From NCBI RefSeq assembly GCF_000026545.1, contig NC_011601.1: a stretch of DNA of 64,000 nt; one strand, 5' to 3'. The translations under genes were made by a program, and so were the position numbers. Below, one piece after another: positions 1 through 18,686 of this stretch (positions are counted from its first letter, which is position 1; the number at the start of each line of letters is the position of its first letter). Below the pieces are notes generated by a model. That model was not told where the DNA came from. It searched no databases and was given only the letters and a program-made list of their open reading frames with translations. This DNA comes from Escherichia coli O127:H6 str. E2348/69. Lineage in GTDB: Bacteria; Pseudomonadota; Gammaproteobacteria; Enterobacterales; Enterobacteriaceae.

Positions 1-167
1 TGTACACCATTCAGGACGGTCGCGCCAAAGGCACGATGTTCAAACTGCACTTCACCGAATATGACAACCACTCCGACATCCCAAGCTGGGGCGGCGGTTA
101 CGGTAACATCTTCCAGGATGAGCGCGACGTGAAATTTATGGTAATCGCACCATTCACCATCTTCTGA
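1..167 (+). CDS. chiP: Chitoporin ChiP (OprD-family outer membrane porin), 3' end only; gene starts upstream of the window
   Basis: Frame open from the window edge to TGA at 165-167; translated tail ...[27 protein letters not shown] ends in aromatic residues typical of an OM beta-barrel; sits immediately upstream of chiQ. Confidence 0.6.
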
Positions 168-216
168 TGCCCGACGCGGCAGGTTTTGTGCCTGCCGCAC
201 GTTTGAGGAATTTGCT

Positions 217-543
217 ATGAAAAAACTGATTCTCATCGCCATGATGGCATCGGGGCTGGTAGCTTGTGCGCAATCAACCGCACCGCAGGAAGACAGTCGT
301 CTGAAAGAGGCTTACAGCGCCTGTATCAACACCGCGCAAGGTTCGCCGGAAAAAATTGAAGCCTGCCAGAGCGTGTTAAACGTGCTGAAGAAAGAGAAAC
401 AACATCAGCAGTTTGCCGAGCAGGAAAGTGTCCGCGTACTGGATTATCAGCAGTGTATTCAGGCAACGCAAACCGGAAATGATCAGGCGGTGAAAGCCGA
501 TTGTGATAAGGTCTGGCAGGAAATTCGCAGTAATAACAAATAA
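217..543 (+). CDS. chiQ: Lipoprotein ChiQ (YbfN)
   Basis: 108-aa ORF with lipoprotein signal peptide and lipobox (…LVAC AQ); synteny downstream of chiP. Confidence 0.75.
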   Translation: MKKLILIAMMASGLVACAQSTAPQEDSRLKEAYSACINTAQGSPEKIEACQSVLNVLKKEKQHQQFAEQESVRVLDYQQCIQATQTGNDQAVKADCDKVWQEIRSNNK

Positions 544-581
544 GTGAGAGCTGTAACTCTCGCTTTTCTTATTTCCCTTAT

Positions 582-612
582 ATAAAAAAGCCAACCCGTA
601 GGTTGGCTTTTC
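582..612. terminator. Hairpin plus T-run between convergent chiQ and fur; probable intrinsic terminator, strongest in the fur (minus) direction
   Basis: gccaacc-cgtagg-ttggc inverted repeat flanked by A/T runs on both sides. Confidence 0.5.
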
Positions 613-626
613 TCGTTCAGGCTGGC

Positions 627-1073
627 TTATTTGCCTTCGTGCGCGTGCTCATCTTCGCGGCAATCGCCTTCGGCACAGTGACCGTAAAGATAGAGACTGT
701 GGTTAGTCAGGCGAATGCCATGTTTTGCGGCAATTTCACGCTGACGCGCTTCGATGGAATCATCACTAAATTCGATAACCTTACCGCAGTCGAGGCAGAT
801 CAGGTGATCGTGGTGATGTTGCTGTGTCAGTTCAAATACGGATTTACCGCCTTCAAAATTGTGGCGGGTGACGATACCAGCGTCGTCAAACTGGTTCAGT
901 ACGCGATATACCGTAGCCAGACCAATTTCTTCACCCATATCGATCAGACGTTTGTATAAATCTTCCGCACTGACGTGATGGTTGTCCGGCTCCTGAAGAA
1001 CTTCCAGGATTTTCAAGCGAGGAAGCGTTACTTTCAGGCCAGCTTTCTTTAGGGCGGTATTGTTATCAGTCAT
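627..1073 (-). CDS. fur: Ferric uptake regulator Fur
   Basis: 148-aa ORF; translation matches Fur including the HHHDH and CxxC metal-site motifs. Confidence 0.95.
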   Translation of the reverse strand: MTDNNTALKKAGLKVTLPRLKILEVLQEPDNHHVSAEDLYKRLIDMGEEIGLATVYRVLNQFDDAGIVTRHNFEGGKSVFELTQQHHHDHLICLDCGKVIEFSDDSIEARQREIAAKHGIRLTNHSLYLYGHCAEGDCREDEHAHEGK

Positions 1074-1152
1074 GCGGAATCTGTCCTGTTACTAAGCGGT
1101 TCACTTCATTAGAAGAAGTGACAGAATTTGCTCTTGAGATAATGCGTATCAT
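1066..1152 (-). CDS. uof: uof, 28-codon leader ORF translationally coupled to fur
   Basis: In-frame ATG gives 28 codons (MIRIISRANSVTSSNEVNRLVTGQIPHD) whose stop overlaps the fur start; length and position agree with the described uof, but the exact peptide is not recalled independently. Confidence 0.45.
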   Translation of the reverse strand: MIRIISRANSVTSSNEVNRLVTGQIPHD

Positions 1153-1158
1153 TATAGA
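1137..1158. promoter_or_regulatory. Fur-box-like palindrome upstream of fur (autoregulation site)
   Basis: gagataatgcgtatcattata on the plus strand (reverse complement TATAATGATACGCATTATCTC) resembles the GATAATGATAATCATTATC consensus. Confidence 0.5.
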
Positions 1159-1361
1159 ATTGCCACGCCTAAATGAAAACCACAAGTCCCTGGCAAATAT
1201 TGTTAATAAAAACGTGGCACAGCTTACATTTACAACGGCAAGGCCACTTGAACACCGGGACATTGTACAGGTACAACAGCAAAAGTTACAAATTTGTAGC
1301 AATTATTTTGATTGGCATTATCTATTAATACGGCGTAGACATGAGTCTACGCCGCATCACA

Positions 1362-1892
1362 TCAGGCATTGAGAATTTCGTCGAGATGCAGCTCTTCAGA
1401 AATCTGTTTAACCCATTTTTCTACACGTTCAGCGGTCAGTTCCGGCTGACGGTCTTCGTCGATAGCCAGACCGACAAAGTGGTCATCATCAGCCAGACCT
1501 TTTGATGCTTCGAAGTGGTAGCCCGCGGTTGGCCAGTGACCAACGATAGTTGCGCCGCGCGGTTCAATGATGTCGCGGATGGTGCCCAATGCATCGCAGA
1601 AGTATTCTGCGTAATCTTCCTGGTCGCCACAACCAAACAGCGCAACCAGTTTGCCATTAAAATCAATCTCTTCGAGAGTCGGGAAGAAGTCATCCCAGTC
1701 ACACTGCGCTTCGCCGTAATACCAGGTTGGGATGCCCAGCAGCAGAATGTCATATGCTTCCAGATCTTCTTTGCTGCTTTTTGCAATGTCATGGACATCG
1801 GCAACGTCTTTACCAAGCTGTTTTTGAATCATTTTTGCGATATTTTCGGTATTACCGGTGTCGCTGCCGAAAAAGATGCCAGTGATAGCCAT
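1362..1892 (-). CDS. fldA: Flavodoxin 1
   Basis: 176 aa from the conserved start [16 protein letters not shown]… (flavodoxin FMN-binding signature); the supplied 215-aa ORF is an upstream in-frame extension and was trimmed. Confidence 0.93.
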
Positions 1893-2031
1893 GAGTGAAA
1901 TAACCTCTTGAAACTTATTGAAATGGGGGTGGAAAATTGCCCACGGATAAAGGCAATCATAGCAGAACAGGCAGTCTTGCGGAATCAGCAAACGAGCAGG
2001 ACTGCACACTGTGCTACATGAAAGTGGAAAT

Positions 2032-2325
2032 TTAAACGATGCCCTGACTACGCAGCGCCGCCAGTTGCTGCATTAACATCTCTTCGATCAGCTCGCTACG
2101 GCTCATATTGCGCGATTCCGCCAGCTCGTTCAGTGCCTCGACAGCTTCCGCGTTCAGCTTCAGTTCGACACGCTTAAGGCCACGTACTTTGTCGCGTTTT
2201 AGTTGGTTGCGTTTATTTATACGCAGCTGTTCATCGCGCGAAAGCGGATTAGTTTTCGGTCGTCCCGGTCGACGCTCGTGCGCGAACAGATCTAATGTCG
2301 TACGGTCCGTTTGTTCTTTGGCCAT
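2032..2325 (-). CDS. ybfE: Small uncharacterized protein YbfE (LexA-regulon member in K-12)
   Basis: 97 aa from [10 protein letters not shown]…; ORF trimmed to the conserved start; synteny between fldA and ybfF. Confidence 0.7.
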
Positions 2326-2464
2326 GATCTTGGTGACTTCGGGGGAAACAATCAGCCAGGCGCCTGCCCGGATGGATAGCGCGCCATAATACATCAGCGC
2401 GATGAGTCACGCCAACGTCCACGCGCGGAAAGCGACGCGGACGCTGGGTTTTTAATCAGTTGCG

Positions 2465-3229
2465 TTAATCATTGAGATAGCGACGGATAGCGCGTAATAC
2501 CGCATCCGGTTTTTCAGCATGGACCCAGTGACCCGCGCCAGCAATCACATGCGCCCGTGCCTGTGGAAATTGTGCCAGTAAATCATCGCGGTACTGCTCG
2601 CTAACATACGGAGAATTGCCGCCTGGGATAAACAGGGCAGGGTGATCCCATGCCGGGATTTTCTCCCAACCCACAATATGCGGATACTGATCCCACAATA
2701 CCGGCACGTTAAAGCGCCACTCCCCGTCAACAAAAGATTTCAGCAGAAACTGAATCACCCCTTCTTCATTAAGATGCTGGTGCATTATTGCTGCTGCTTG
2801 CTGGCGAGTTTGTGCGTCCGATTCACTGACTGCGTTGATGGCCGCGAAAATCTCATCATGCCGGCGAACGTGATAATCGACCGGCGCAATATCAATTGCC
2901 ACCAGCTTGTCAATCCGATCGGGGGCCAGTGCAGTAAGTGCCATTACCGCTTTACCGCCCATGGAGTGACCGATAAATGTTGCTTTGTCGATCTGCAGTG
3001 CATCCAGGGTATCAACAAGATCCTGGGCCATCGCCGGGTAATTCATTACCGGATCTCTCGGTGAAAGACCGTGGTTACGCATATCAACCTGGATGATATT
3101 GTGATCGTTTACCAGATCGCGAGCCAGTACGCCAAGGTTGTCGAGGCTACCAAACAGACCATGGACAAGAACGATGGGAGAATTATTGTGCTGGTTTTGT
3201 GCAGTTTGCGCGCGGATATTCAATTTCAT
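2465..3229 (-). CDS. ybfF: Alpha/beta-hydrolase esterase YbfF
   Basis: 254-aa ORF with GHSMGG nucleophile-elbow motif; synteny next to seqA. Confidence 0.9.
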   Translation of the reverse strand: MKLNIRAQTAQNQHNNSPIVLVHGLFGSLDNLGVLARDLVNDHNIIQVDMRNHGLSPRDPVMNYPAMAQDLVDTLDALQIDKATFIGHSMGGKAVMALTALAPDRIDKLVAIDIAPVDYHVRRHDEIFAAINAVSESDAQTRQQAAAIMHQHLNEEGVIQFLLKSFVDGEWRFNVPVLWDQYPHIVGWEKIPAWDHPALFIPGGNSPYVSEQYRDDLLAQFPQARAHVIAGAGHWVHAEKPDAVLRAIRRYLND

Positions 3230-3413
3230 GGCAAAGTTCTTTTTTTCGCGTTGTCGGGTTAGGGTATTATGTTGACCATTGTGCCACAGGGCTGCAACAA
3301 ATAAGGTTTATTCCGAGTTTTTCTGCAAGCCAGGCTTGACGCTATCCGCTGCCGGGATTTATTCATATACTCCTGGCGACTTGTATTCAGCTAAGACACT
3401 GCACTGGATTAAG

Positions 3414-3959
3414 ATGAAAACGATTGAAGTTGATGATGAACTCTACAGCTATATTGCCAGCCACACTAAGCATATCGGCGAGAGCGCATCCGACATTTTA
3501 CGGCGTATGTTGAAATTTTCCGCCGCATCACAGCCTGCTGCTCCGGTGACGAAAGAGGTTCGCGTTGCGTCACCTGCTATCGTCGAAGCGAAGCCGGTCA
3601 AAACGATTAAAGACAAGGTTCGCGCAATGCGTGAACTTCTGCTTTCGGATGAATACGCAGAGCAAAAGCGAGCGGTCAATCGCTTTATGCTGCTGTTGTC
3701 TACACTATATTCTCTTGACGCCCAGGCGTTTGCCGAAGCAACGGAATCGTTGCACGGTCGTACACGCGTTTACTTTGCGGCAGATGAACAAACGCTGCTG
3801 AAAAATGGTAATCAGACCAAGCCGAAACATGTGCCTGGTACGCCGTATTGGGTGATCACCAACACCAACACCGGCCGTAAATGCAGCATGATCGAACACA
3901 TCATGCAGTCGATGCAATTCCCGGCGGAATTGATTGAGAAGGTTTGCGGAACTATCTAA
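3414..3959 (+). CDS. seqA: Replication initiation negative regulator SeqA
   Basis: 181 aa from [17 protein letters not shown]…; the longer supplied ORF was trimmed to the conserved start. Confidence 0.93.
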
Positions 3960-3984
3960 AACGTTGCAGACAAAGGACAAAGCA

Positions 3985-5625
3985 ATGGCAATCCACAATC
4001 GTGCAGGCCAACCTGCACAACAGAGTGATTTGATTAACGTCGCCCAACTGACGGCGCAATATTATGTACTGAAACCAGAAGCAGGGAATGCGGAGCACGC
4101 GGTGAAATTCGGTACTTCCGGTCACCGTGGCAGTGCAGCGCGCCACAGCTTTAACGAGCCGCACATTCTGGCGATCGCTCAGGCAATTGCTGAAGAACGT
4201 GCGAAAAACGGCATCACTGGCCCTTGCTATGTGGGTAAAGATACTCACGCCCTGTCCGAGCCTGCGTTCATTTCCGTACTGGAAGTGCTGGCAGCGAACG
4301 GTGTTGATGTCATTGTGCAGGAAAACAATGGCTTCACTCCGACACCTGCCATTTCCAATGCCATTCTGGTTCACAATAAAAAAGGTGGCCCGCTGGCAGA
4401 CGGTATCGTGATTACACCGTCTCATAACCCGCCGGAAGATGGTGGTATCAAGTACAATCCGCCAAATGGTGGCCCGGCTGATACCAACGTCACTAAAGTG
4501 GTGGAAGACAAGGCCAACGCACTGATGGCTGATGGCCTGAAAGGCGTGAAGCGTATCTCCCTCGACGAAGCGATGGCATCCGGTCATGTGAAAGAGCAGG
4601 ATCTGGTGCAGCCGTTCGTGGAAGGGCTGGCCGATATCGTTGATATGGCAGCGATTCAGAAAGCGGGCCTGACGCTGGGTGTCGATCCGCTGGGCGGTTC
4701 TGGTATCGAATACTGGAAGCGTATTGGCGAGTATTACAACCTCAACCTGACCATCGTTAACGATCAGGTCGATCAAACCTTCCGCTTTATGCACCTAGAT
4801 AAAGACGGTGCGATCCGTATGGACTGCTCCTCCGAGTGTGCGATGGCGGGCCTGCTGGCACTGCGTGATAAGTTCGATCTGGCGTTTGCTAACGACCCGG
4901 ATTATGACCGTCACGGTATCGTCACTCCGGCAGGTTTGATGAATCCGAACCACTACCTGGCGGTGGCGATCAACTACCTGTTCCAGCATCGTCCGCAGTG
5001 GGGCAAAGATGTTGCTGTCGGTAAAACGCTGGTTTCATCTGCGATGATCGACCGTGTGGTCAATGATTTGGGCCGTAAGCTGGTAGAAGTACCGGTAGGT
5101 TTCAAATGGTTTGTTGATGGTTTGTTCGATGGCAGCTTCGGCTTTGGCGGCGAAGAGAGTGCAGGCGCTTCCTTCCTGCGTTTCGACGGCACGCCGTGGT
5201 CCACCGATAAAGACGGCATCATTATGTGTCTGCTGGCGGCGGAAATCACCGCTGTCACCGGTAAGAACCCGCAGGAACACTATAACGAACTGGCAAAACG
5301 CTTTGGTGCGCCGAGCTATAACCGTTTGCAGGCAGCAGCGACTTCCGCACAAAAAGCGGCGTTGTCTAAGCTGTCTCCGGAAATGGTGAGCGCCAGCACC
5401 CTGGCAGGTGACCCGATCACCGCGCGTCTGACGGTGGCACCGGGTAATGGCGCTTCTATCGGCGGTCTGAAAGTGATGACTGACAACGGCTGGTTCGCCG
5501 CGCGTCCGTCAGGCACGGAAGACGCATATAAGATCTACTGCGAAAGCTTCCTTGGTGAAGAACATCGCAAGCAGATTGAGAAAGAAGCGGTTGAGATTGT
5601 TAGCGAAGTTCTGAAAAACGCGTAA
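3985..5625 (+). CDS. pgm: Phosphoglucomutase
   Basis: 546 aa from [11 protein letters not shown]…; contains the TPSHNP phosphoserine loop; seqA-pgm operon arrangement. Confidence 0.95.
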
Positions 5626-5640
5626 ACATATCAAATAAGA

Positions 5641-5672
5641 AAAAGGGCGGTCGGAAGATCGCCCTTTTTTGC
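5641..5672. terminator. Intrinsic terminator between convergent pgm and potE
   Basis: gggcggtcggaagatcgccc hairpin followed by TTTTTT. Confidence 0.7.
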
Positions 5673-5681
5673 TTTGCTTAA

Positions 5682-7001
5682 TTAACCGTGTTTATTTTTC
5701 AGTTCAAAGCGTGGTGAGACCAGACCATACAGTGTCCAACCGAGGAAGGTCACGATGGAACCGTATAGCATGGCTTCTTCCCCGGATGAGTACAGCGCAT
5801 AAAAGCTGTACATCGCGCCAACAAAAGCAACAAAGTTTGCAACTTTCGCTTTTGAGGGGGGCACATTAGCGACCTTCTGAATAATGACTAATGCCGCCAT
5901 TGACAGAATATACGGAATGATATTGGTCACCACGGCCAGGTTAACCAGCACGTTGAACTGACTGTTTAGCGACGGGCTAATCGTCATCAGCGCCAACCCG
6001 CTCTGGATAATCACAATGGTCAACATTCCCTGCACCGGTGCATCCACTTTGGTTACACGGGAGAAAATTTTAGGGAAGTAGCCTTCATCAGATGAAGATT
6101 TAAACACCTGGGCAATGGTGAACTGCCAGCCAAGCAGCGAACCGCAGCAGGACATCACCATCAGCGCCATAATGACTTTACCCACTTCCGGCGTGAACAT
6201 CTGCGCGAAGGCCAGACCAAATGGTGCCGTTGAATTTGCCAGCTCCATATTTGGCACAATCCCGGCAATCACGTTGGTGGAGACGATATAAATCACCGCC
6301 GCACCTAACGTACCGCCGAGTACCGCGATTGGCACATTACGTTCCGGGTTTTCCACTACATCAGTATTCGCACACGCAGACTCCAGACCAAGAAAAGCCC
6401 ACAGCGTCATAGCGATGGAAGAACCTACCGCACTGAAGAAGGGTGCATGATGCGGATTCCAGGAATCAACGTAAAGCGTCGGGCTAAACCAGAACCAGCC
6501 GATAATGCACAGGCCTACCACCGGAATAATGACCCCCCACACGGTAATGCTACTGATTTGCCCGGTAATGCGCGCACCACCAAAGTTAGCCACGGTACAA
6601 ATCCACAGCACCCCGATGGTCGCAAGACCAATCTGCACTGGCGACAAACTCGCGCCGAGCAGTTCGGTGCCGTAACCAACCGCCGAAATAGCAATCGCGA
6701 CGTTAGCAATCAGCAGCGAGACGCCGTAGGTATAGTTCGCCATAAAGTTACCGGATTTACCGAAAGCATACTCGGCATAACCGCCCATACCTCCTGATTT
6801 ACGGCTGAACATACCGCATTTTGCGAATGCCCATGCCAGTGCCATTGAGCCTACGGCTGTCACCAACCAGGAGATTATTGAGATTGTCCCAACTTCGGCA
6901 AGCTTTGTCGGCAGCATGATGATGCCGGAGCCCATCATGTTGACCATCGTCAGTATGGTTAACTGAACGACGCCCATCTTGTTCGATTTAGCCTGACTCA
7001 T
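5682..7001 (-). CDS. potE: Putrescine-ornithine antiporter
   Basis: 439-aa polytopic APC-family transporter; speF-potE operon synteny. Confidence 0.93.
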   Translation of the reverse strand: MSQAKSNKMGVVQLTILTMVNMMGSGIIMLPTKLAEVGTISIISWLVTAVGSMALAWAFAKCGMFSRKSGGMGGYAEYAFGKSGNFMANYTYGVSLLIANVAIAISAVGYGTELLGASLSPVQIGLATIGVLWICTVANFGGARITGQISSITVWGVIIPVVGLCIIGWFWFSPTLYVDSWNPHHAPFFSAVGSSIAMTLWAFLGLESACANTDVVENPERNVPIAVLGGTLGAAVIYIVSTNVIAGIVPNMELANSTAPFGLAFAQMFTPEVGKVIMALMVMSCCGSLLGWQFTIAQVFKSSSDEGYFPKIFSRVTKVDAPVQGMLTIVIIQSGLALMTISPSLNSQFNVLVNLAVVTNIIPYILSMAALVIIQKVANVPPSKAKVANFVAFVGAMYSFYALYSSGEEAMLYGSIVTFLGWTLYGLVSPRFELKNKHG

Positions 7002-9196
7002 AATTTTTCCCCTTTCAGCAGGGTGCTTTGCGCATCACGAGGCTTGATGACATAGCACCAAACTTGCTTACGACCATCATGTTCTTCGATATAGACACCC
7101 TGCAGCTCCGGTGCAAAACCTGGCAGCAGGTTGATGCCTTCTTCCAGAGCGCTGAAGTAACGCAGAACAGCACCACCCCAGATTTCACCAGGAACAACAC
7201 ACAGCACACCCGGAGGATAAGGAAGCGCACCTTCGGCAGCGATACGGCCTTCTGCATCCGGCAGACGAACCAGCTCCACTTCACCGCGTAAGTAGGCGTA
7301 GTTGGCTTCTTGCGGATTCATGCTGACGCGTGGGAAGTGTTCCTTACGGAACATCTCTTTTTGCAGTTGTTTCACGTTGTGGCGGGCATACAAATCATGC
7401 ATTTCCTGGCACAACTGACGAAGGGTATAACCGGCGTAGCGCTCTTCATGCTGTTTGTAGATGGAAGGCAGTACTTCTGATAATGGCGCGTCGGACTCAA
7501 GCAGTTTTTCGAAGCGTACCAGCAGAGCAGCAAGTTGCTGAAGTTTGGCCATATCTTCTGCCGGAGTCAGCAGAAAGAGGATGGAGTTAAGATCGCATTT
7601 TTCCGGCACTACGCCATTTTCGCGCAGGAAGTTAGTAAGAATCGTCGCGGGTACACCGAACGCTTCATATTCGCCGTTACGTGCATCAATACCTGGGGTT
7701 GTCAGCAACAGTTTGCACGGATCGACAAAGTATTGATTCTCTGCATAGCCTTCAAAAGAATGCCAGTGCTCACCTGGTACAAACTGGAAGAAGCGCAGAT
7801 CAACCGCAATTTGCGCTGTTTCATACGACTGCCAGGGTTTACCATCCACCAGTTCAGGTACGAATGGACGAATATGCTGACAGTTATCGAGGATCAGTTT
7901 GCGGGCATTAATGCCATTTACCACACAATCCATCCACATATTACGACCGCTGACACCTTCATGCATTTTGGCGTTGATATCCAGTGCGGCAAACAGCGGA
8001 TAGAACGGGCTGGTGGAGGCATGCATCATAAAGGCGTTGTTCATGCGTTTGTGCGATACATAACGCTGTTGCCCTTTGATATGGCTGTCTTTTTTATGGA
8101 TTTGTGAAGTCTGGGAAAAACCAGCCTGCTGTTTATGCACAGATTGCGTAACCAGAATACCCGGATCGTTCTCATTAAGATCCAGCAACAGTGGTGAACA
8201 GTCCGCCATCATCGGGATAAACTGCTCATAGCCGACCCATGCGGAGTCAAAGAGGATGTAGTCACACAGATGACCAATTTTATCCACCACCTGACGGGCG
8301 TTATAAATCGTACCGTCGTAAGTGCCTAGCTGAATAACGGCGAGGCGGAAAGGACGCGCCTCTTTTGCCCGCTGCGGTGCGACTTCCGCGATCAGTTCAC
8401 GCAGGTAACTTTCTTCAAAACAGTGAGCGTCAATACCACCGATAAAACCATACGGGTTACGTGCGGTTTCCAGATAAACCGGTGTCGCGCCAGCCTGTAG
8501 CAACGCTCCGTGGTGGTTAGATTTGTGGTTATTGCGGTCAAACAGCACCAGATCACCCGGTGTCAGCAGGGCGTTTAAAACCACTTTGTTAGAAGATGAA
8601 GTGCCATTTAGAACGAAGTATGTTTTATCGGCATTAAACACTTTTGCCGCATGTTGCTGTGCAATGCATGGCGCGCCTTCGTGAATCAGCAGATCGCCCA
8701 TTGCCACATCCGCGTTGCACAAGTCAGCACGGAACAGCGCCTCACCAAAGTATTCCACAAACTGATTCCCCGCCGGATGGCGACGGAAAAATTCGCCGCC
8801 CTGATGACCGGGGCAATCAAACGCGCTGTTACCCTGATTGACATAATCGACCAGTGCGCGGAAGAAGGGCGGGCGCAGTTGAGTTTCATAATGGCTGGCT
8901 GCGGTTTCTAACTGACGACCATAAAATTCTCGTCGCGATTCGCAATTCTCAAAGACACCCGAAATACGGGGCAAATACTCTGCGGGTACACGTTCTTGAT
9001 TTTCAGTAGCAATAAATACCGGGATGCCATAACCCGTGGCATCGATTTCATCGAGTTTTCCGCGTGTAACATCGTTGAGCGATAAAACTATTGCCGCCAC
9101 ATCGATATTACTGTTTTCATTAATATCGATACATTTTCGCTGCGTGGTAAAACAGTCCGGGCAAGAATCACTAACCGCAATTTTTAATTTTGACAT
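6998..9196 (-). CDS. speF: Inducible ornithine decarboxylase
   Basis: 732 aa from MSKLKIAVSDSCPDCF…; fold-III PLP decarboxylase; the supplied ORF has an N-terminal extension that was trimmed. Confidence 0.93.
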   Translation of the reverse strand: MSKLKIAVSDSCPDCFTTQRKCIDINENSNIDVAAIVLSLNDVTRGKLDEIDATGYGIPVFIATENQERVPAEYLPRISGVFENCESRREFYGRQLETAASHYETQLRPPFFRALVDYVNQGNSAFDCPGHQGGEFFRRHPAGNQFVEYFGEALFRADLCNADVAMGDLLIHEGAPCIAQQHAAKVFNADKTYFVLNGTSSSNKVVLNALLTPGDLVLFDRNNHKSNHHGALLQAGATPVYLETARNPYGFIGGIDAHCFEESYLRELIAEVAPQRAKEARPFRLAVIQLGTYDGTIYNARQVVDKIGHLCDYILFDSAWVGYEQFIPMMADCSPLLLDLNENDPGILVTQSVHKQQAGFSQTSQIHKKDSHIKGQQRYVSHKRMNNAFMMHASTSPFYPLFAALDINAKMHEGVSGRNMWMDCVVNGINARKLILDNCQHIRPFVPELVDGKPWQSYETAQIAVDLRFFQFVPGEHWHSFEGYAENQYFVDPCKLLLTTPGIDARNGEYEAFGVPATILTNFLRENGVVPEKCDLNSILFLLTPAEDMAKLQQLAALLVRFEKLLESDAPLSEVLPSIYKQHEERYAGYTLRQLCQEMHDLYARHNVKQLQKEMFRKEHFPRVSMNPQEANYAYLRGEVELVRLPDAEGRIAAEGALPYPPGVLCVVPGEIWGGAVLRYFSALEEGINLLPGFAPELQGVYIEEHDGRKQVWCYVIKPRDAQSTLLKGEKL

Positions 9197-9318
9197 TTTC
9201 CAACTCTTTATTTTTGGTAATAGCAGGTCCTCAATTTCTCGAATGAGAAATTGATCGTGCCGGAAAAAAAGCAAAGTTGCCCCGCTGATAAATTAATCAG
9301 AAGTTTGCTTTTTTCAGA

Positions 9319-9576
9319 ATGCAGAAACCCTTATCAGTCTGGTGGCTGATAATACAAGGGTTAACAGAGAATGAGCACTGCGGAATACAGGCATATGCCT
9401 GTAATACAGAGAGTCAGGAAGACCTGTACGCTGAAGTGCCCTTAGTCGGTAGACTAACGGGCATTGAAGAAGTGAAAGTCGAAGCTATTGCGATGAGCAA
9501 ACTTCATAATATGAGTTGTCCGCCTTATATGGGGCATAGTGCGGCTGTTATTTTCCATTTAATTTACCTTTCCTGA
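9319..9576 (+). CDS. Hypothetical 85-aa ORF (possibly the one annotated ybfK in K-12), antisense to speFL
   Basis: ORF-track only; no recognisable motif; overlaps speFL on the opposite strand, so it may be non-coding. Confidence 0.2.
   Translation: MQKPLSVWWLIIQGLTENEHCGIQAYACNTESQEDLYAEVPLVGRLTGIEEVKVEAIAMSKLHNMSCPPYMGHSAAVIFHLIYLS
9454..9558 (-). CDS. speFL: speFL ornithine-sensing leader peptide (34 aa) controlling the speF-potE operon
   Basis: Minus-strand ORF ATGGAAAATAACAGCCGCACTATGCCCCATATAAGGCGG… encodes MENNSRTMPHIRRTTHIMKFAHRNSFDFHFFNAR, upstream of speF. Confidence 0.8.
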   Translation of the reverse strand: MENNSRTMPHIRRTTHIMKFAHRNSFDFHFFNAR

Positions 9577-9791
9577 TGTGAATGAAGGTGAAGGTATTCT
9601 ATCCAGGAAATACGGTTGAACTGTGAAGGTGATCAATAAAAAATGATCAATCTTAATTTATTTAATGATGAGCTTTTTACTCAGTAATATAAAATATTGA
9701 ATTGTTATTTTTGTGTGTTATTTAAGATAAAAAGCCGTATTTATTATTACGGCTTTAATTAATAAAAGGCAGGATGTATTAAAATTAATAT

Positions 9792-10469
9792 TCAAAGCAT
9801 AAACCGATACCCAATACCGGTTTCAGTAATGAAATGGCGGGGGCGGGCGGGATCTTGCTCCAGTTTTTGTCGCAGATGCCCCATATAAATACGCAAATAA
9901 TGACTGTGTTCGACCGCGTTTGGTCCCCACACCTGGTTGAGGAGCTGGCGCTGGGTGAGCACTTTTCCCGCATTATTAAGCAACACTGCCAGCAGGCGGA
10001 ACTCAATCGGGGTGAGATGCACCTCTTCCTCGCCCCGATGGATCACACGAGCTGCTAAATCGACGGTAACATCGGAAAATTTCACCAGCGGATCGGGCGC
10101 GGCGGTGGCGGAGTGGCGACGTAAAGCGACGCGCAGACGGGCCTGCAATTCGCCAATGCCAAACGGCTTACTCAGATAATCATCCGCTCCGGCATCCAGC
10201 GCGGCGATTTTGTCGCTCTCTTCGCTACGTGCGGAAAGCACAATCACCGGCACCGCGCTCCACTGGCGCAGGTCGCGGATAAACTCAATCCCATCACCAT
10301 CGGGCAGGCCGAGATCGAGAATAATCAAATCTGGCTTACGGGTAGCCGCTTCCAGCAAGCCGCGTTGCAGCGTTTCGGCCTCAAAGACGCGCATCCCATC
10401 GCCCTCCAGCGCCGTGCGCAGAAAGCGACGAATAGCCTGTTCATCTTCAACAATCAGAACGTTTGTCAC
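9792..10469 (-). CDS. kdpE: Response regulator KdpE (OmpR family)
   Basis: 225-aa ORF with receiver domain and winged-helix domain; overlaps the kdpD stop. Confidence 0.95.
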   Translation of the reverse strand: MTNVLIVEDEQAIRRFLRTALEGDGMRVFEAETLQRGLLEAATRKPDLIILDLGLPDGDGIEFIRDLRQWSAVPVIVLSARSEESDKIAALDAGADDYLSKPFGIGELQARLRVALRRHSATAAPDPLVKFSDVTVDLAARVIHRGEEEVHLTPIEFRLLAVLLNNAGKVLTQRQLLNQVWGPNAVEHSHYLRIYMGHLRQKLEQDPARPRHFITETGIGYRFML

Positions 10470-13150
10470 ATATCCTCATGAAATTCTTCAAGTTCAGGGG
10501 CTGTTTGCTGGGGAAGTGTAACACGAAAACAGGCACCACCTTCCGGTCGGTTGAATGCGGTAATGGTGCCGCCGTGTACATCCACTATCGCCCGACAAAT
10601 TGCCAACCCAAGCCCTACACCCGGTACCGCCGACTCTTTATTCCCGCGAGCAAACTTATCAAATATCGTCTGCTCCTGGCCTGGTGGAAGACCGGGGCCG
10701 TTATCCCAGACATCCAGTTGTAGATTTTCGCCCTCAACGTGGGCATTGATACCAATTTCGGCCTGCGCCCCCGCATATTTCACCGCGTTCTCCAGCAGGT
10801 TAATCAGCACCCGTTCAAAGAGTGGCCCGTCAACGTGGATTAAGGTCAGCGGCTCTGGCAGAGAAAGATTGATGGGCGACGATAAACCCGGTTCCAGCAT
10901 TTGCAGCGCGCTGCCGACCACTTCTTCCAGCGTTAACCACTCTTTCTTCAAATTAAAGCCGCCGGACTGAATTCGCGCCATATCCAGTAGATTATTCACC
11001 AGTCGGGTGGTGTTCAGCACATGCTGACGAATCTCGCTGGCCTGGCGGGCGTGGGGCGATCCTTCGCTTGCCAGATCGAGCGTTAAGATTTCTGCCTGAC
11101 CGAACAGCACCGTAAGCGGCGTGCGTAAATCATGCGAAAGCGCCGCCAGCAGGGCGTTGCGGATCTGTTCACGTTCGCTTGCCATCCGCGCCTGTTCTTC
11201 GCTGGCGGTCAGTGTCAGTCGCTCAAGGGCATTGGCGACTAACAGCGTAAACGTCTCCAGCAGGCGCTGCTGTTCCGGGATCATCAACTGGCGCAGATTC
11301 CCCGGTTCCACCACCACCAGTCCGTAGGTTTTCTCGCCGCTTTTTAGCGGCAAAATCTGGTACGGTACACCGGGTAACGTGTCGGTGCCCGCGCCCGCAG
11401 GCAGGCCTTTATCAAAACTCCACTGCGCGATGGCATCGTCCCACGGCGTCATTCCTTGCGGATGTGTTAAAGGCTGCAATTTACCGTTGTCATCAGGCAG
11501 CAACACCTGGCTACGGGCATGAAACGTGGAGGCAATAAACTGTTCGCTGGTGGCGGCGATATCCTGCGAACTACGGCCCACAGCCAGAGCTTTGGACATT
11601 TCATATAAGTGCCGTGTGCGTTGTTCGCGGTAACGGGCTACCCGCGCCTGATAACGCACGCCAGCAGTAAGGTTCCCGATCACCAGCCCGACGGTTAACA
11701 TCACCGCGAAGGTCAGCAGATATTGCACATCAGAGACGGCGAGCGTGCCGCGTGGGGCGATAAAAAAGAGATCGAAACTCACCACATTAATGACGGTGGC
11801 AACCACCGAAGGCCAGCGTCCGTAAAATAGTGCCACCACCACGACGCCAAGCAGATACAGCATCACCAGGTTGGCGGCATCAAACGCCATCAGCCACTGC
11901 ATGGCAATTAAGGTGATAACGGCGCATAACGCGGCGGCAACCACGCATCCCTGAATCTGTACCCGCCACTTGTCTTTAAAAGAGCGGCTATCCGGCGCGT
12001 TGTTAATCGTGCGGGCGGGTGGTTCATCAAGCGCGACCAGCACCTGATCGAGATCGGGGGCGATGCGTGCCAGCCGGTCAGCAAATGTTTCCCGACGCCA
12101 CCAGCGGCGCGAAGCCGGGCGACCGAGAATAATCTTGCCGAGATTATGTTCACGGGCATAACGCACTACCGCTTTCTCTTCCGCTGGATCAGAAAGTGTT
12201 GCCGTCTCCGCGCCCAGCTCCTGCGCCAGACGTAAGGCGCTGAGAATTGCCCGACGTTTTTTCTCCGGTAAGCGATGCAGGGCAGGGGTTTCAACATACA
12301 CCGCGTGCCAGACACTGCCCAGGCGCGAGGCCAACCGCGCCGCCGCGCGGACCAGTTTCTCACTGCCGGTGTTATGCCCGATGCATAATAGGATCGCGTC
12401 GCGTGTGTGCCAGACTTTCTCTTCGCCAGGATGCCCCCGCCAGGCGCGCATTTGCTCATCTACGCGATCGGCAGTACGGCGCAGTGCCAGTTCGCGCAGG
12501 GCGATCAGATTGCCTTTGCGAAAAAAATGTTCAATGGCGCGCTCCGCTTGCCCGGCAATATAGACTTTGCCTTCTTTCAGCCGCTGGCGCAGATCGTCCG
12601 GGGGCAAGTCCACCAGTACTACGTCGTCGGCGGCATCAAAAAAAGGATCGGGCACGGTCTCCCGTACCTGAATTCCGGTGACGCCGCTGACCACATCATT
12701 CAGACTTTCCAGATGCTGAACGTTGACGGTAGTGAAAACATCAATGCCAGCTTCCAGCAGCTCTTCGATGTCCTGCCAGCGTTTAGGATGACGTGAACCT
12801 GGCGCATTACTGTGCGCCAGTTCGTCCATTAAGATCAGTGCCGGACGGCGGGCGAGGGCGGCATCGAGATCAAACTCGCTGATGTGCCGCCCACGGTACG
12901 CCTGGCGTTTTAACGGCAGAACAGCCAGACCTTTCAGCATGGCGGCGGTATCTTTCCGACCGTGGGTTTCTACCACGCCAACCACAATATCCAGCCCTTG
13001 CGCCCGCAGTCGCTGGGCTTCCGCCAGCATCGCCCAAGTCTTCCCGACGCCTGCGCAGGCACCGAAGAATACTTTCAGCTTCCCCCGATGCGGCGCGGCA
13101 GCTTGTTCCAGCAGACGATCGGGGTCGGGACGTAAGGGTTCGTTATTCAT
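10466..13150 (-). CDS. kdpD: Sensor histidine kinase KdpD
   Basis: 894 aa from [16 protein letters not shown]…; N-terminal KdpD domain with Walker A (GACAGVGKT), TM segments, HisKA/HATPase domains; start trimmed from the supplied ORF. Confidence 0.95.
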
Positions 13151-13715
13151 CAAGCTTATCCAGTGCCAGATTGAGTTCGACAATGTTGACGACCGGCTGG
13201 CCGATATATTTCACCAGCGGTTGTTGGCTGTATTTTGCGATCAGTTGCGTGAGCTGTTCAACGCTGAGATTACGCGCTTTCGCCACGCGTGGGATCTGCC
13301 AGGCCGCCGCTTGCGGGGTGATGTTATTGTCCAGCCCGCTTGCTGACGCCGTCACCAGTTCAACCGGAACGTTCGTGCTGGCATCCGGGTTAGCAGCCCG
13401 TAATTCAGCAACGCGTGCGGCTATCTGTTTATCCAGCTCCGGGTTACTGACCGCCAGGTTGCTCCCGCCAGAAGCCTGTGGATTATAGGGCATTTCTGCT
13501 GTTGCCGACGGGCGACCATGAAAATAGCCGTTGCCGGTAAAATTTTGCCCGATTAATGCCGAACCGCGCACCGTATCACCTTCACGAATCAATGAACCGT
13601 TGGCCTGCCAGGGAAACCACCATTGCCCCAGTGCGGTGGTCAGCAGCGGGTAAACGCCGCCAGTAATCAATAACAGAAAGAGAAATGTCGATAATGCCGG
13701 ACGTAATCCACGCAT
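13143..13715 (-). CDS. kdpC: K+-transporting ATPase subunit C
   Basis: 190 aa from [11 protein letters not shown]…; kdpFABC operon synteny. Confidence 0.9.
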
Positions 13716-13723
13716 GGTAAACC

Positions 13724-15772
13724 TCACACCAGACCGCAAACGGTTAGCAGTAAATCAATGACTTTGATACCAATAAACGGCACCAGCAGCCCACCCAGAC
13801 CGTAAATCCATAAGTTACGGCGCAACATGGCAGAAGCGGTAAGCGGTTTATAACTCACGCCTTTTAACGCCAGGGGAATCAAAAAGACGATAATCAAGGC
13901 GTTGAAAATGACCGCACTGAGAATGGCGGAGTCGGGCGAATGCAGGCGCATGATGTTCAGCGCATTTAACTGCGGATACGTTGCCGCGAACGCCGCTGGA
14001 ATAATGGCGAAGTATTTCGCCACATCGTTGGCAATGCTGAAGGTGGTCAACGAGCCACGGGTCATCAGCATCTGTTTGCCAATGTGCACTACCTCGATCA
14101 ACTTGGTCGGGTTGGAGTCGAGATCCACCATATTGCCCGCTTCTTTCGCCGCCTGGGTGCCGGAGTTCATCGCCACCGCAACATCGGCCTGTGCCAGCGC
14201 CGGAGCATCGTTGGTGCCATCGCCGGTCATCGCCACTAAACGGCCTTCCGCCTGATACTGACGAATCAGTGCCAGCTTGGCCTCCGGTGTTGCTTCGGCG
14301 AGAAAATCATCGACACCCGCTTCCGCAGCTATCGCGGCGGCAGTCAGGCGGTTATCGCCGGTAATCATCACCGTTTTAATGCCCATTTTACGCAGCTGCG
14401 CGAAGCGCTCTTTAATACCGCCTTTGACGATATCTTTCAGCGCAATAACGCCCAGCACACGAGAACCTTCCACCACCACCAGCGGCGTGGCTCCCTGACG
14501 CGCAACCTGATCGACTTTTTGATCAACATCGGCAGGGAAGTGACCGCCGTTAGCCTCAACATGGCGGCGAATGGCATCGACAGAACCTTTACGGATCATG
14601 CGGTTGTCGATGTTGATCCCGCTCATCCGGCTTTGTGCAGTAAAAGGTACAAAGGTGGCATGGAGCGACTGCACATCGCGCTCGCGCAGGTTAAAACGCT
14701 GCTTGGCGAGGATCACAATACTGCGGCCTTCCGGCGTTTCATCAGCCAGCGAAGCCAGTTGTGCGGCGTCGGCCAGCGCTTTTTCCTCCACGCCTTGTGC
14801 GGGGATAAACTCTGACGCCTGACGGTTACCGAGGGTGATGGTGCCGGTTTTATCCAGCAGCAGAACGTCAACATCACCCGCTGCTTCAACTGCTCGCCCG
14901 CTGGTGGCAATCACATTCGCGCCCAGCATCCGACTCATCCCGGCGACGCCAATCGCTGACAACAGGCCGCCAATAGTGGTTGGGATCAGACAGACCAGCA
15001 GTGCCACCAGTACCGTTACGCTGACTGCATTACCGCCCCACGCGGAAAACGGCCACAGCGTGGCGGTTGCCAGTAAAAAGACGATAGTCAGGGCAATCAG
15101 GAGAATGGTCAGGGCAATCTCGTTCGGCGTTTTACGTCGCTGCGCACCTTCCACCATCGCGATCATCCGATCCAGAAATGTCTCGCCGGGGTTAACGCTG
15201 CACTCAATCACCAGCCAGTCAGAAAGAATACGCGTGCCGCCAGTGACGGAGGCAAAATCACCGCCGGATTCACGGATCACCGGAGCCGATTCCCCGGTGA
15301 TGGCGCTTTCATCGACCGATGCGCCGCCTTCAATGACTTCACCATCGCAGGGGATAATATCGCCAGCTTCTACCAGTACGATATCGCCTTTACGCAGTTG
15401 ATCGGCAGGAACTTTGTCTGCCGCAGCGCCATATTTCGGTTCGCGCAGCTTGCGAGCAAAAGCGGTTTTTTTCACCCCTTTCAGACTGTTGGCCTGCGCT
15501 TTACTGCGGCCTTCTGCCAACGCCTCGGCGAAATTAGCGAACAGTACGGTGACCCACAGCCAGCCGCTAATTGCCGCGCTAAACAGCGCATTGCCAGGCA
15601 TCACACCGCTTGCCATCGCGATGCTAATACAGGTGGTCAGCAGACTGCCGATCCAGACGATAAACATCACCGGATTGCGCCATTGCGCCTGCGGGTTTAA
15701 TTTTTTCACCGCTTCTTTCAGCGCCTGAACGACAAGTGTTGGTTCGAATAGCGCCAGTTGTTTACGACTCAT
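13724..15772 (-). CDS. kdpB: K+-transporting P-type ATPase subunit B
   Basis: 682-aa ORF with P-type ATPase motifs DKTGTIT and [12 protein letters not shown]. Confidence 0.96.
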
Positions 15773-15794
15773 ATTCAGTGCTCACTCAATATCA

Positions 15795-17468
15795 TCAGGA
15801 GAGATATTCCGCCACCGGACCAAGCGCCAGGGCAGGGATAAAGGTCAGTGCGCCAACCAGCAACACGGTGCCGATTAACAGGCCAACAAACAGCGGGCCG
15901 TGCGTTGGCAATGTGCCGGAGCTGGCGGGTTGGCTCTTTTTACTCACCAGCGAACCGGCAATTGCCATCACCGGGATAATCACCCCGAAGCGCCCGACAA
16001 ACATGCACAACGCCAGTAAACAGTTCCAGAATGGAGAGTTGGCGCTTAATCCGGCAAAGGCGCTGCCGTTGTTGTTAGCGGCGGATGACACGGCATACAG
16101 CACTTCGCTAAAACCATGCGGGCCAGGGTTGAGCATGGCGCTACGTCCGGCGTCGGTCATCATTGCCAGCGCCGCGCCCATCAGCACCAGCGTCGGGGTG
16201 ACCAGAATCGCCAGTGCAGTCAGTTTCATCTCGCGTACGTCGATTTTTTTACCCAGATATTCCGGTGTACGACCAATCATCAGCCCGGCAATAAACACCG
16301 CCAGCAGGACAAACAGCATCATGCCGTAAAGGCCTGAACCGACGCCGCCGAATACCACTTCACCAATTTGCATCAACCACATCGGCACCATGCCACCAAG
16401 AGCGGTAAACGAATCATGCATCGCAATCACCGCGCCGCAGGAAGCCGCCGTAGTCACGACCGCAAACAGGCTACTGACCAGCACGCCGAAACGGCTCTCT
16501 TTACCTTCCATATTGATGCTGCTGTCCGCGCCGAGCGCCAGCAGATGAGGATTACCCTGAACTTCTGCCCACATCACTACGCCTACGCAGATGACAAAAA
16601 TCACTGACATCGCCCACAGCAACATGCGCCCCTGGCGACGATCGCCCGCCACTTCACCAAAGGCAAAGCACAGCGCTGTTGGGATCAAGAAGATCGCCAG
16701 CATTTGCACGAAGTTGGTCAGTGCGGTTGGGTTTTCAAACGGATGCGACGAGTTGGCATTAAAAAAGCCACCGCCGTTAGTTCCGAGCATTTTGATCGCT
16801 TCCTGAGAAGCTACTGGCCCCATTGGTAATAGCTGTTGCGCTCCTTCAATGGTCGTCACAGCCTGATAAGGCAAAAAGTTTTGCAGCACACCTTGTTGTA
16901 TAAAAAACAGTGCGATCAGCAATGCTACGGGGGTTAACACCCATAACGTAATCCGCAACAGGTCTACCCACGCATTACCCAGCGTGTTCATGCTCTGGCG
17001 GGTAAACGCGCGAATAAGCGCAAAAATCACCGCAATCCCGCTGGCGGCAGAAAGAAAGTTTTGCACCGTTAAGCCCGCCATCTGGCTGAAATAGCTCAAC
17101 GTGGTTTCACCGCTATAAGATTGCCAGTTGGTATTCGTGACAAAGCTGACGGCGGTATTGAGCGCCAGATCCCACGACAGCCCCGGCAACTGCTGTGGAT
17201 TAAGCGGCAGATAGTGCTGACCGAGCAACATAAAAAACAGCACCGCCAGCCCCAGTATATTCAGGCCAAGAATGGCTGAGAGATACTGCTTCCAGTTCAT
17301 CTCGCGGTCAGAGACGCCAAGCGTGCTAAAGAGTACGCGTTCAACGCCCGTCGTACCAGGAAGAGGTATATCATTAATCAGCCGCGCCAGCCCGCTACCT
17401 AAGGGACGCGCCAGCACCATTAATACCAGTAAAAACGTGGCAATCAGTAAGAACCCTTGCGCAGCCAT
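15795..17468 (-). CDS. kdpA: K+-transporting ATPase subunit A
   Basis: 557 aa from [12 protein letters not shown]…; the supplied ORF has a 48-codon in-frame upstream extension that was trimmed. Confidence 0.93.
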
Positions 17469-17557
17469 CAGAACGCCTCCGCATTGATCAGGGCATAAAC
17501 CAGATAACCCAGTAATAAAAACACCAGCAACACGCCGGTTATCACGCCTGCACTCAC
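17468..17557 (-). CDS. kdpF: KdpF, 29-aa membrane peptide of the Kdp complex (GTG start)
   Basis: GTG-initiated [29 protein letters not shown]; stop overlaps the kdpA ATG. Confidence 0.8.
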
Positions 17558-17621
17558 AGTGCACCTCCAGTGGCCTAAAAGTGATACCGGAAGGGTAGAG
17601 TTCTGGCTGCAAAGATTTCGC

Positions 17622-17660
17622 AAAAATCTGCGGGCGTGGTGTAAAAAAAGTATAAAAATG
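17622..17660 (-). promoter_or_regulatory. KdpE operator / kdpFABC promoter region
   Basis: Minus-strand sequence TTTTTATACTTTTTTTACACCACGCCCGCAG upstream of kdpF matches the T-rich direct-repeat KdpE binding site as I recall it. Confidence 0.55.
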
Positions 17661-17869
17661 GCAAAAGCCATGGTTTAACTAATGTTTAGTATTAATTTAA
17701 CTTTTATGTAACTTAATTACACGGTGAATGTAAATAAACCATCAATAAGCAAAAATAAGTGGTCGGATGAGTAGTAAAATTACACAAACAGCGGTACTAT
17801 TTTCATCAGATAAACGAATTCATTTTTCCGGTGCTATTCACCGGGTAGATACAAAAGGGGGAGAAAAGT

Positions 17870-18076
17870 ATGGAACTCTACAAAGAATATCCTGCATGGC
17901 TTATCTTTTTACGCCGTACTTGTGCGGTTGCAGCGGGCGTTCTGGCGCTGCCTTTCATGCTTTTCTGGAAAGACCGCGCCCGCTTTTATAGCTACCTGCA
18001 CCGCGTCTGGTCGAAAACCAGCGATAAACCGGTGTGGATGGATCAGGCCGAAAAGGCAACCGGTGATTTTTATTGA
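17870..18076 (+). CDS. ybfA: Small membrane protein YbfA (DUF2517)
   Basis: 68-aa [20 protein letters not shown]…; synteny upstream of the kdp promoter. Confidence 0.8.
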
Positions 18077-18099
18077 TTGCTAAACATGACGTTCAAAGA

Positions 18100-18135
18100 A
18101 AACCGCCAGCGGAGACGCTGGCGATTTTCTTTTTT
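18100..18135 (+). terminator. Intrinsic terminator after ybfA
   Basis: ccgccagcg-gagac-gctggcg hairpin followed by ATTTTCTTTTTT. Confidence 0.7.
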
Positions 18136-18176
18136 CGGCGTCTACACTTACTCCTGTAAACCGTTCAGGAGCAGTA

Positions 18177-18686
18177 ATGAATCAACAACTTTTTGATGAC
18201 AGCACCCTTATCCGCATTTTTGCTTTGCATGAGTTACACAATCTCAAAGATCGAGGACTAACGCGCGGGGCGCTTCTCGATTATCACAGCCGCTATAAAC
18301 TCGTCTTTCTGGCGCATTCTCAGCCGGAGTACCGCAAACTTGGCCCGTTTGTGGCTGATATTCACCGGTGGCAAAGTCTGGATGACTATTACAACCAGTA
18401 CCGCCAACGCGTAATTGTTTTGCTTTCTCACCCTGCCAACCGGCGTGATCATACTAACGTTTTGATGCACGTTCAGGGATATTTTCGCCCACATATTGAT
18501 TCCACAGAACGCCAGCAGCTGGCAGCGCTTATCGACAGTTATCGCCGTGGCGAGCAACCGCTTCTTGCGCCGCTGATGCGTATCAAACACTATATGGCGC
18601 TTTATCCTGACGCCTGGCTTTCAGGGCAGCGTTATTTCGAACTTTGGCCGCGTGTGATTAACTTGCGCCATGCAGGAGTTTTATGA
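18177..18686 (+). CDS. ybgA: DUF1722 protein YbgA
   Basis: 169-aa ORF; stop overlaps the phr start (ybgA-phr operon). Confidence 0.85.
   Translation: MNQQLFDDSTLIRIFALHELHNLKDRGLTRGALLDYHSRYKLVFLAHSQPEYRKLGPFVADIHRWQSLDDYYNQYRQRVIVLLSHPANRRDHTNVLMHVQGYFRPHIDSTERQQLAALIDSYRRGEQPLLAPLMRIKHYMALYPDAWLSGQRYFELWPRVINLRHAGVL

Follow-up and report, generated by a model that had tools for sequence, protein, structure and literature searches.

Bidirectional terminators are a class familiar in E. coli from full-length RNA profiling. Bidirectional intrinsic terminators between convergent bacterial genes have been described as a class (bioRxiv 10.1101/2022.10.23.513370). The junction between pgm and potE in E. 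coli O127:H6 strain E2348/69, the subject of this work, resembles these terminators in having one G+C-rich hairpin, preceded by an A-run and followed by a T-run, between convergent stop codons 56 bp apart. It differs from them in that the stem on the - strand has one A.C mismatch, and its action as a terminator is a prediction from sequence. Another close comparison is with the corresponding interval of E. coli K-12 MG1655 (b0688-b0692), where pgm, potE, speF, speFL and kdpE have the same order and orientation and the pgm-side hairpin is of the same type. K-12 differs in having, in addition, a BIME, ybfP, a ybfG pseudogene, the kdpE relic ybfI and a second hairpin beside potE. The DNA that we analyzed is a stretch of 64,000 nucleotides of the E2348/69 genome (RefSeq NC_011601.1), referred to below as the window; positions are those of the window unless stated otherwise, and the features of the locus are collected in Table 1.

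Table 1. Features of the pgm-potE junction and its surroundings in the window
Feature	Position	Strand	Size or content	Basis
pgm, phosphoglucomutase	3985..5625	+	546 aa plus stop	TIGR01132, 1070 bits (NCBIfam); RefSeq annotation
Spacer, convergent intergenic	5626..5681		56 bp; without ORF, REP/BIME or ybfP/ybfG/ybfI	Sequence, K-12 alignment, tblastn
Single hairpin, candidate bidirectional intrinsic terminator	5639..5670		For pgm (+) and the speFL-speF-potE operon (-)	Terminator scan, folds of both strands
potE, putrescine-ornithine antiporter	5682..7001	-	439 aa	NF007938, 857 bits (NCBIfam); RefSeq annotation
speF, inducible ornithine decarboxylase	6998..9196	-	732 aa	TIGR04301, 1428 bits; tblastn match 7001-9196
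speFL leader peptide ORF	9454..9558	-	34 aa; translation MENNSRTMPHIRRTTHIMKFAHRNSFDFHFFNAR
kdpE response regulator	9792..10469	-		ORF

In the RefSeq annotation of E2348/69, pgm and potE are direct neighbours, and over 2,056 bp with the spacer at their centre the window matches this EPEC strain at 100% identity. The TAA stop codon of pgm occupies 5623-5625 and that of potE 5682-5684 (TTA on the + strand), and everything that separates them is the sequence ACATATCAAATAAGAAAAAGGGCGGTCGGAAGATCGCCCTTTTTTGCTTTGCTTAA. The end of speF and the start of potE overlap by 4 bases, and the annotations of E2348/69 and K-12 agree on the relative position of speFL. The initial annotation had described pgm and potE as convergent, 56 bp apart and separated by a single hairpin, and this is borne out by the stop coordinates, the NCBIfam identities and the terminator scan. 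It had also reported ybfP and ybfG as absent from this place. Indeed, tblastn with YbfP and YbfG gave no match in positions 1-20000 of the window, the spacer measures only 56 bp, and no segment of the K-12 type (ybfP, ybfG, which encodes a DUF2625 protein, and the kdpE relic ybfI) lies between pgm and potE. Neither REP palindromes of the GCCGGATGCGGC or GCCTGATGCGCTACGCTTATCAGGCCTAC type nor a promoter-like site was found in 5626-5681. Two transcription units, seqA-pgm (+ strand) and speFL-speF-potE (- strand), converge on the spacer, which is very likely their junction in complete and undamaged form.

The hairpin (GAAAAAGGGCGGTCGGAAGATCGCCCTTTTTT) begins 13 nt past the pgm stop codon and ends 11 nt short of that of potE on the + strand. 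Its stem comprises 14 pairs, 6 of which are G-C; the G+C core (5645-5652 paired with 5657-5664) closes a GGAA loop (5653-5656) and is flanked by an A-run at 5640-5644 and by a T-run (TTTTTT, 5665-5670) placed directly 3' of the + strand stem. The + strand folded with an energy of -22.9 kcal/mol (z = -4.4), and none of 200 shuffled sequences was as stable. The - strand, which reads ...GACCGCCC TTTTTCTTATTT, folded with -17.5 kcal/mol (z = -3.5) and presents a stem followed by TTTTTCTTATTT. One G.U pair in the + strand stem corresponds to an A.C mismatch in its - strand counterpart, and for this reason the consensus scan made its call on the + strand only. Because of this mismatch and of the missing call, termination of the potE transcript may be the weaker of the two.

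Since the G+C stem lies between an A-run and a T-run, an RNA polymerase arriving from either direction would transcribe a stem-loop and then a U-run. The single hairpin would in this way serve as the terminator of both the pgm and the potE unit, and we consider that one element probably ends transcription of both. The hairpin is kept across the compact alleles of E. coli (those with the short spacer of the window) and in E. albertii, where a change from G.U to A-U preserves the pairing. Other genera have, at the equivalent place, hairpins of unrelated sequence that are also built from an A-run, a GC stem and a T-run: in Atlantibacter, Cedecea, Huaxiibacter and several Citrobacter species the spacers measure 46-74 bp and contain hairpins of the same architecture but of different sequence. 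This turnover of the sequence with retention of the form is the best available comparative evidence for a functional two-way terminator.

It may be asked whether the spacer holds more than a terminator, for instance a small RNA or a regulatory site standing in for the functions of ybfP and ybfG. An Rfam search of 5000-10500 gave nothing except matches to MicX at the hairpin, on both strands (5612-5695; 23 and 21 bits). They lie far below the gathering score of 75 bits for this family and span the hairpin only, as generic terminators do. Furthermore, the spacer has no promoter-like site, the hairpin takes up 32 of its 56 bp and leaves no room for another element, and its pgm-side part outside the hairpin differs between E. 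coli and E. albertii without apparent constraint. We therefore rejected a further RNA element, which is highly improbable. MicX itself is a Vibrio sRNA, and the resemblance of 5612-5695 to it is that of a generic terminator rather than of an sRNA.

The initial annotation placed ybfP and ybfG between pgm and potE in K-12, which is correct. In MG1655, 1,747 bp lie between the stop codons of pgm and potE, and this interval is annotated with ybfP (a lipoprotein gene) and the pseudogenes ybfG and ybfI. The alignment to K-12 proposed as a check did not show the 56-bp spacing there, so the claim stands, as does its description as a minor difference in gene content, ybfP, ybfG' and ybfI' being present in K-12 and all missing from the window. 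The order in K-12 is pgm, hairpin 1, a BIME made of two REP palindromes, a short 'tail', ybfP (+), ybfG' (-), ybfI, a REP remnant, a second copy of the tail, hairpin 2 and potE. Since there is a second hairpin beside potE, pgm and potE each have their own terminator hairpin in K-12. Hairpin 1, on the pgm side (GGGCGGTCGCAAGATCGCCC), and hairpin 2, on the potE side (GGGCGATCATTCAATCGCCC), lie at 3713-3743 and 5407-5435 of the K-12 locus (L001 numbering); they bracket the insert and have diverged from each other. When the window junction was compared with K-12 by BLAST, homology extended from pgm through the hairpin and resumed at the second hairpin, just before the potE stop codon; the window spacer thus corresponds to hairpin 1 plus the flank to the right of hairpin 2. 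REP palindromes follow the pgm hairpin in K-12 and in three other loci (L004, L005 and L083). The G+C content of the insert is 0.38-0.47 versus 0.54-0.61 for pgm, and the DNA identity between the window and K-12 amounts to 98.3% for potE and 97.0% for pgm. Towards the 3' end of pgm (window 5420-5450), about 180-200 bp before the stop codon, there is a tight cluster of synonymous-looking differences from K-12. One 110-bp bin near this end contains 9 mismatches, which looks like a recombination boundary near a polymorphic junction.

The distribution of these layouts was determined in 5,426 complete E. coli genomes. The compact allele was found in 3,201 of them with a 2-kb query and in 3,163 with a strict query of 356 bp spanning the junction, which leaves out insertions of IS size, i.e. 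in 58-59%, making it the majority form. It is present in strains E2348/69, ATCC 25922, O157:H7, ETEC-2265 and the divergent E57. The segment of the K-12 type was covered over at least 80% of its length in 1,851 genomes. An allele reading pgm-hairpin 1-BIME-ybfP-BIME-kdpE, which lacks speFL-speF-potE and ybfG, was observed in 254 genomes, and two genomes had hairpin 1, BIME, tail and hairpin 2 with nothing more. One of these, R32_14_1F, is an ordinary E. coli as judged from the identity of its pgm and potE. A further form, pgm-hairpin 1-BIME-kdpE, was seen in locus L005.

The census also bears on the idea that the short spacer results from a collapse between repeated hairpins during assembly, the K-12 segment being present in reality. 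Such a collapse is conceivable in principle, two similar 29-bp hairpins flanking the segment in K-12. But the same junction occurs in more than 3,100 independently finished complete genomes, including those of O157:H7 and, with 100% identity, of E2348/69; compact junctions are also found in E. albertii and in other genera; and a 29-bp repeat is far too short to fold away 1.7 kb of unique sequence. An assembly artefact is thus refuted by the genome census and retains practically no probability.

Information on the history of the K-12 segment came from ybfI. This is a decayed 3' end of kdpE, 144 bp long (5222-5365 in L001, corresponding to kdpE 9792-9935 in the window), which is situated between ybfG and the potE-side hairpin. 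The fragment begins at a kdpE-like stop codon and is 84% identical to the kdpE 3' end at the protein level and about 90% at the DNA level. Its identity with kdpE was about 89-91% for the window and for four E. coli-lineage loci (L004, L005, L083 and L085), while no match was obtained with kdpE of E. albertii. An attempt to trace the source lineage of the relic through the kdpE comparison was dropped, the fragment being too decayed to inform on this point.

Because ybfI is the 3' end of kdpE directly upstream of ybfG, an allele with the order pgm-ybfP-ybfG-kdpE was predicted. Searching with a synthetic query, in which ybfG-ybfI of K-12 was joined to the remaining part of kdpE, retrieved this allele from three genomes (CUWW10, GF4-3 and KL53). 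CUWW10 (L091) has an intact ybfG and no speF-potE. Over the last ~450 bp of pgm, K-12 and CUWW10 differ at a single position, which links the left-hand part of the allele in K-12 to the pgm-ybfP-ybfG-kdpE haplotype. Altogether, the speFL-speF-potE cassette is missing from about 257 complete E. coli genomes. The alleles without it (pgm-ybfP-kdpE in S1-ESP-03-A, and the CUWW10 allele) share with the window the pgm-side hairpin and the site between pgm and the kdp operon; they differ from it in carrying ybfP, with or without an intact ybfG, and in lacking the entire cassette. A 77.9-kb plasmid of E. coli EC100 (NZ_CP182310.1, 25573-25927) was also noticed to bear potE, with about 90% identity to the gene on the chromosome.

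The K-12 layout consists of a segment of lower G+C content, comprising REP/BIME sequences, the E. coli-restricted orphan lipoprotein gene ybfP, ybfG and the kdpE relic, set between two diverged copies of the hairpin. The relic indicates that this segment once sat in a pgm-ybfP-ybfG-kdpE haplotype devoid of speF-potE, which survives in a few strains. That haplotype would then have combined with the speF-potE haplotype through one homologous exchange and one illegitimate, REP-adjacent exchange. One joint in K-12 is visible, at which kdpE is cut 144 bp from its stop codon and abuts the REP remnant. Both the direction and the mechanism of this exchange are what we infer from the arrangement of the sequences.

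As to the genes of the segment, pan-genome work has listed ybfP among the accessory genes and reports its enrichment in phylogroup A (PMC5422975). YbfP had no Pfam match, and its homologues formed 27 clusters in a collection of 5.8 billion proteins, all of them E. coli-like. A distant homologue or an outside donor was considered and rejected, since the most divergent clusters, P0017 (63%) and P0021 (71%), sit in E. coli-like loci in which ybfP is frameshifted or noisy. Intact YbfG, as found in strain KN12-1, is a DUF2625 protein of 216 aa. In the same strain (L086, 3686-6004), potE is 93.5% identical to that of the window, as compared with 98.3% for potE of K-12, and the differences are grouped in blocks, a pattern suggestive of a potE that is imported or mosaic and is linked to the segment of the K-12 type. 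IS1 copies were observed inside ybfG and beside ybfI in VL7S7 (L092, 5184-7139), H31 and H73, indicating that the accessory segment is undergoing further degradation.

For comparison with other species, six proteins were mapped in 80 loci, taken from one genome per species with Pgm; two of these genomes are GTDB species representatives titled E. coli. The gene next to pgm was potE in 38 of the 80 loci (with a spacer shorter than 100 bp in 16 of the 38) and kdpE in 30; a lone SpeF-like decarboxylase was found in 3, and 9 were uninformative. No tblastn match to YbfP or YbfG was found next to pgm in any of the 80. Across Enterobacteriaceae, the speFL-speF-potE cassette (window 5682-9558) is either present or missing between pgm and kdpE, always at exactly this site; Citrobacter includes loci of both kinds. 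In Pseudocitrobacter species and 'Escherichia sp. ESNIH1' (L006, L008, L067), a SpeF-like ornithine decarboxylase (~80% identical) adjoins pgm without potE. Longer distances from pgm to potE were seen in Salmonella enterica subsp. diarizonae and arizonae (664-679 bp; L012, L022) and in Kluyvera (about 1,085 bp; L034, L042, L046). These intervals do not contain YbfP or YbfG and include a pgm-side terminator hairpin and REP-like sequence.

The compact form is thus that of most E. coli strains, of E. albertii and of many Enterobacteriaceae, and in none of the 80 loci did ybfP or ybfG adjoin pgm; this argues that compact is the ancestral type. We conclude with good confidence that the compact layout represents the ancestral architecture type as well as the E. 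coli majority form, that K-12 is a derived composite, and that the lack of ybfP, ybfG and ybfI does not reflect a loss specific to this strain. An ancestral state had been offered in the initial annotation as one of two options. This holds for the type of architecture; the proposal needs to be refined for the allele itself, whose hairpin is the K-12 pgm-side copy and for which an origin by deletion deserves a minor share of the probability.

The question of the allele arises from a comparison of the hairpins. E. albertii NBRC 107761 (L003) has a 57-bp spacer between convergent pgm and potE genes, with one hairpin (GGGCGATCATTCGATCGCCC) that, as in the window, consists of an A-run, a GC stem with arms GGGCG...CGCCC and a T-run. 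It differs from the window hairpin by an A in place of a G at one position of the stem and by its loop, ATTC versus GGAA; on the pgm side, the flanks of the two are unrelated. It is the potE-side copy of the K-12 type alleles, and not the window hairpin, that it corresponds to: between the potE-side hairpin of two-hairpin alleles (loop type GATCATTCRATC) and the single hairpin of E. albertii, 19-20 of 20 core bases are identical, making this copy look the older one. All five compact E. coli alleles that we inspected have instead a hairpin of the pgm-side type, with a GGAA, GCAA or AGAA loop. The mismatch profiles of pgm and potE are mosaic, from recombination.

On the basis of the census and of parsimony, we favour direct descent of the E. 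coli compact allele from the ancestral junction, with drift of its hairpin, and we regard this as reasonably likely. The hairpin types point in the other direction, namely to a secondary origin of the compact allele. In that scheme, a two-hairpin ancestor (either hairpin 1-BIME-hairpin 2 or the K-12 type) would have lost its interior through recombination within the right arm and T-run shared by the two hairpins (GATCGCCCTTTTTTAC), leaving the pgm-side hairpin fused to the potE-side flank. This is exactly what the window spacer is, a hairpin of the pgm-side type followed by the potE-side flank of two-hairpin alleles. In addition, the potE-side hairpin of K-12, L004 and R32_14_1F equals that of E. 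albertii in stem and loop and yet is missing from compact E. coli alleles, and BIME-only two-hairpin alleles do exist in genuine E. coli. They are, however, very rare (2 of the 5,426 genomes), whereas the compact allele is the majority form and is found in strains as unlike as E2348/69, ATCC 25922, O157:H7, ETEC-2265 and E57. A deletion also requires an extra event, and the reciprocal product of such a crossover, with the potE-side loop, was not seen among the five compact alleles inspected. Moreover, all E. coli alleles, even those that lack potE, have one and the same type of hairpin beside pgm, which may simply be the form that the single hairpin takes in E. coli. The presence of the pgm-side type in all compact alleles would fit a hairpin-to-hairpin deletion about as well as direct descent, and overall we hold a deletion to be possible though rather unlikely.

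Our preference for direct descent is a moderate one. A wider and still more tentative proposal is that the interval between pgm and the kdp operon is a small recombination hot spot, where hairpins and REP elements act as joints for swapping speFL-speF-potE, ybfP and ybfG cassettes and where the window allele arose by a hairpin-to-hairpin deletion. If this were true, terminator hairpins would have a second role as short substrates for recombination, by which convergent junctions are brought back to a minimal form.

The difference in gene content described here is already visible in the public annotation of K-12 and E2348/69. It is real but ordinary and already known, and the pgm-potE junction is of little importance in itself and opens no long-standing question. 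What it means for E. coli is that K-12 is not the reference state at pgm-potE and that ybfP, ybfG and ybfI are accessory or decayed DNA of part of the species, which calls for caution when annotation is transferred from K-12. ybfI also provides a small example of a pseudogene fragment that records the history of a locus.
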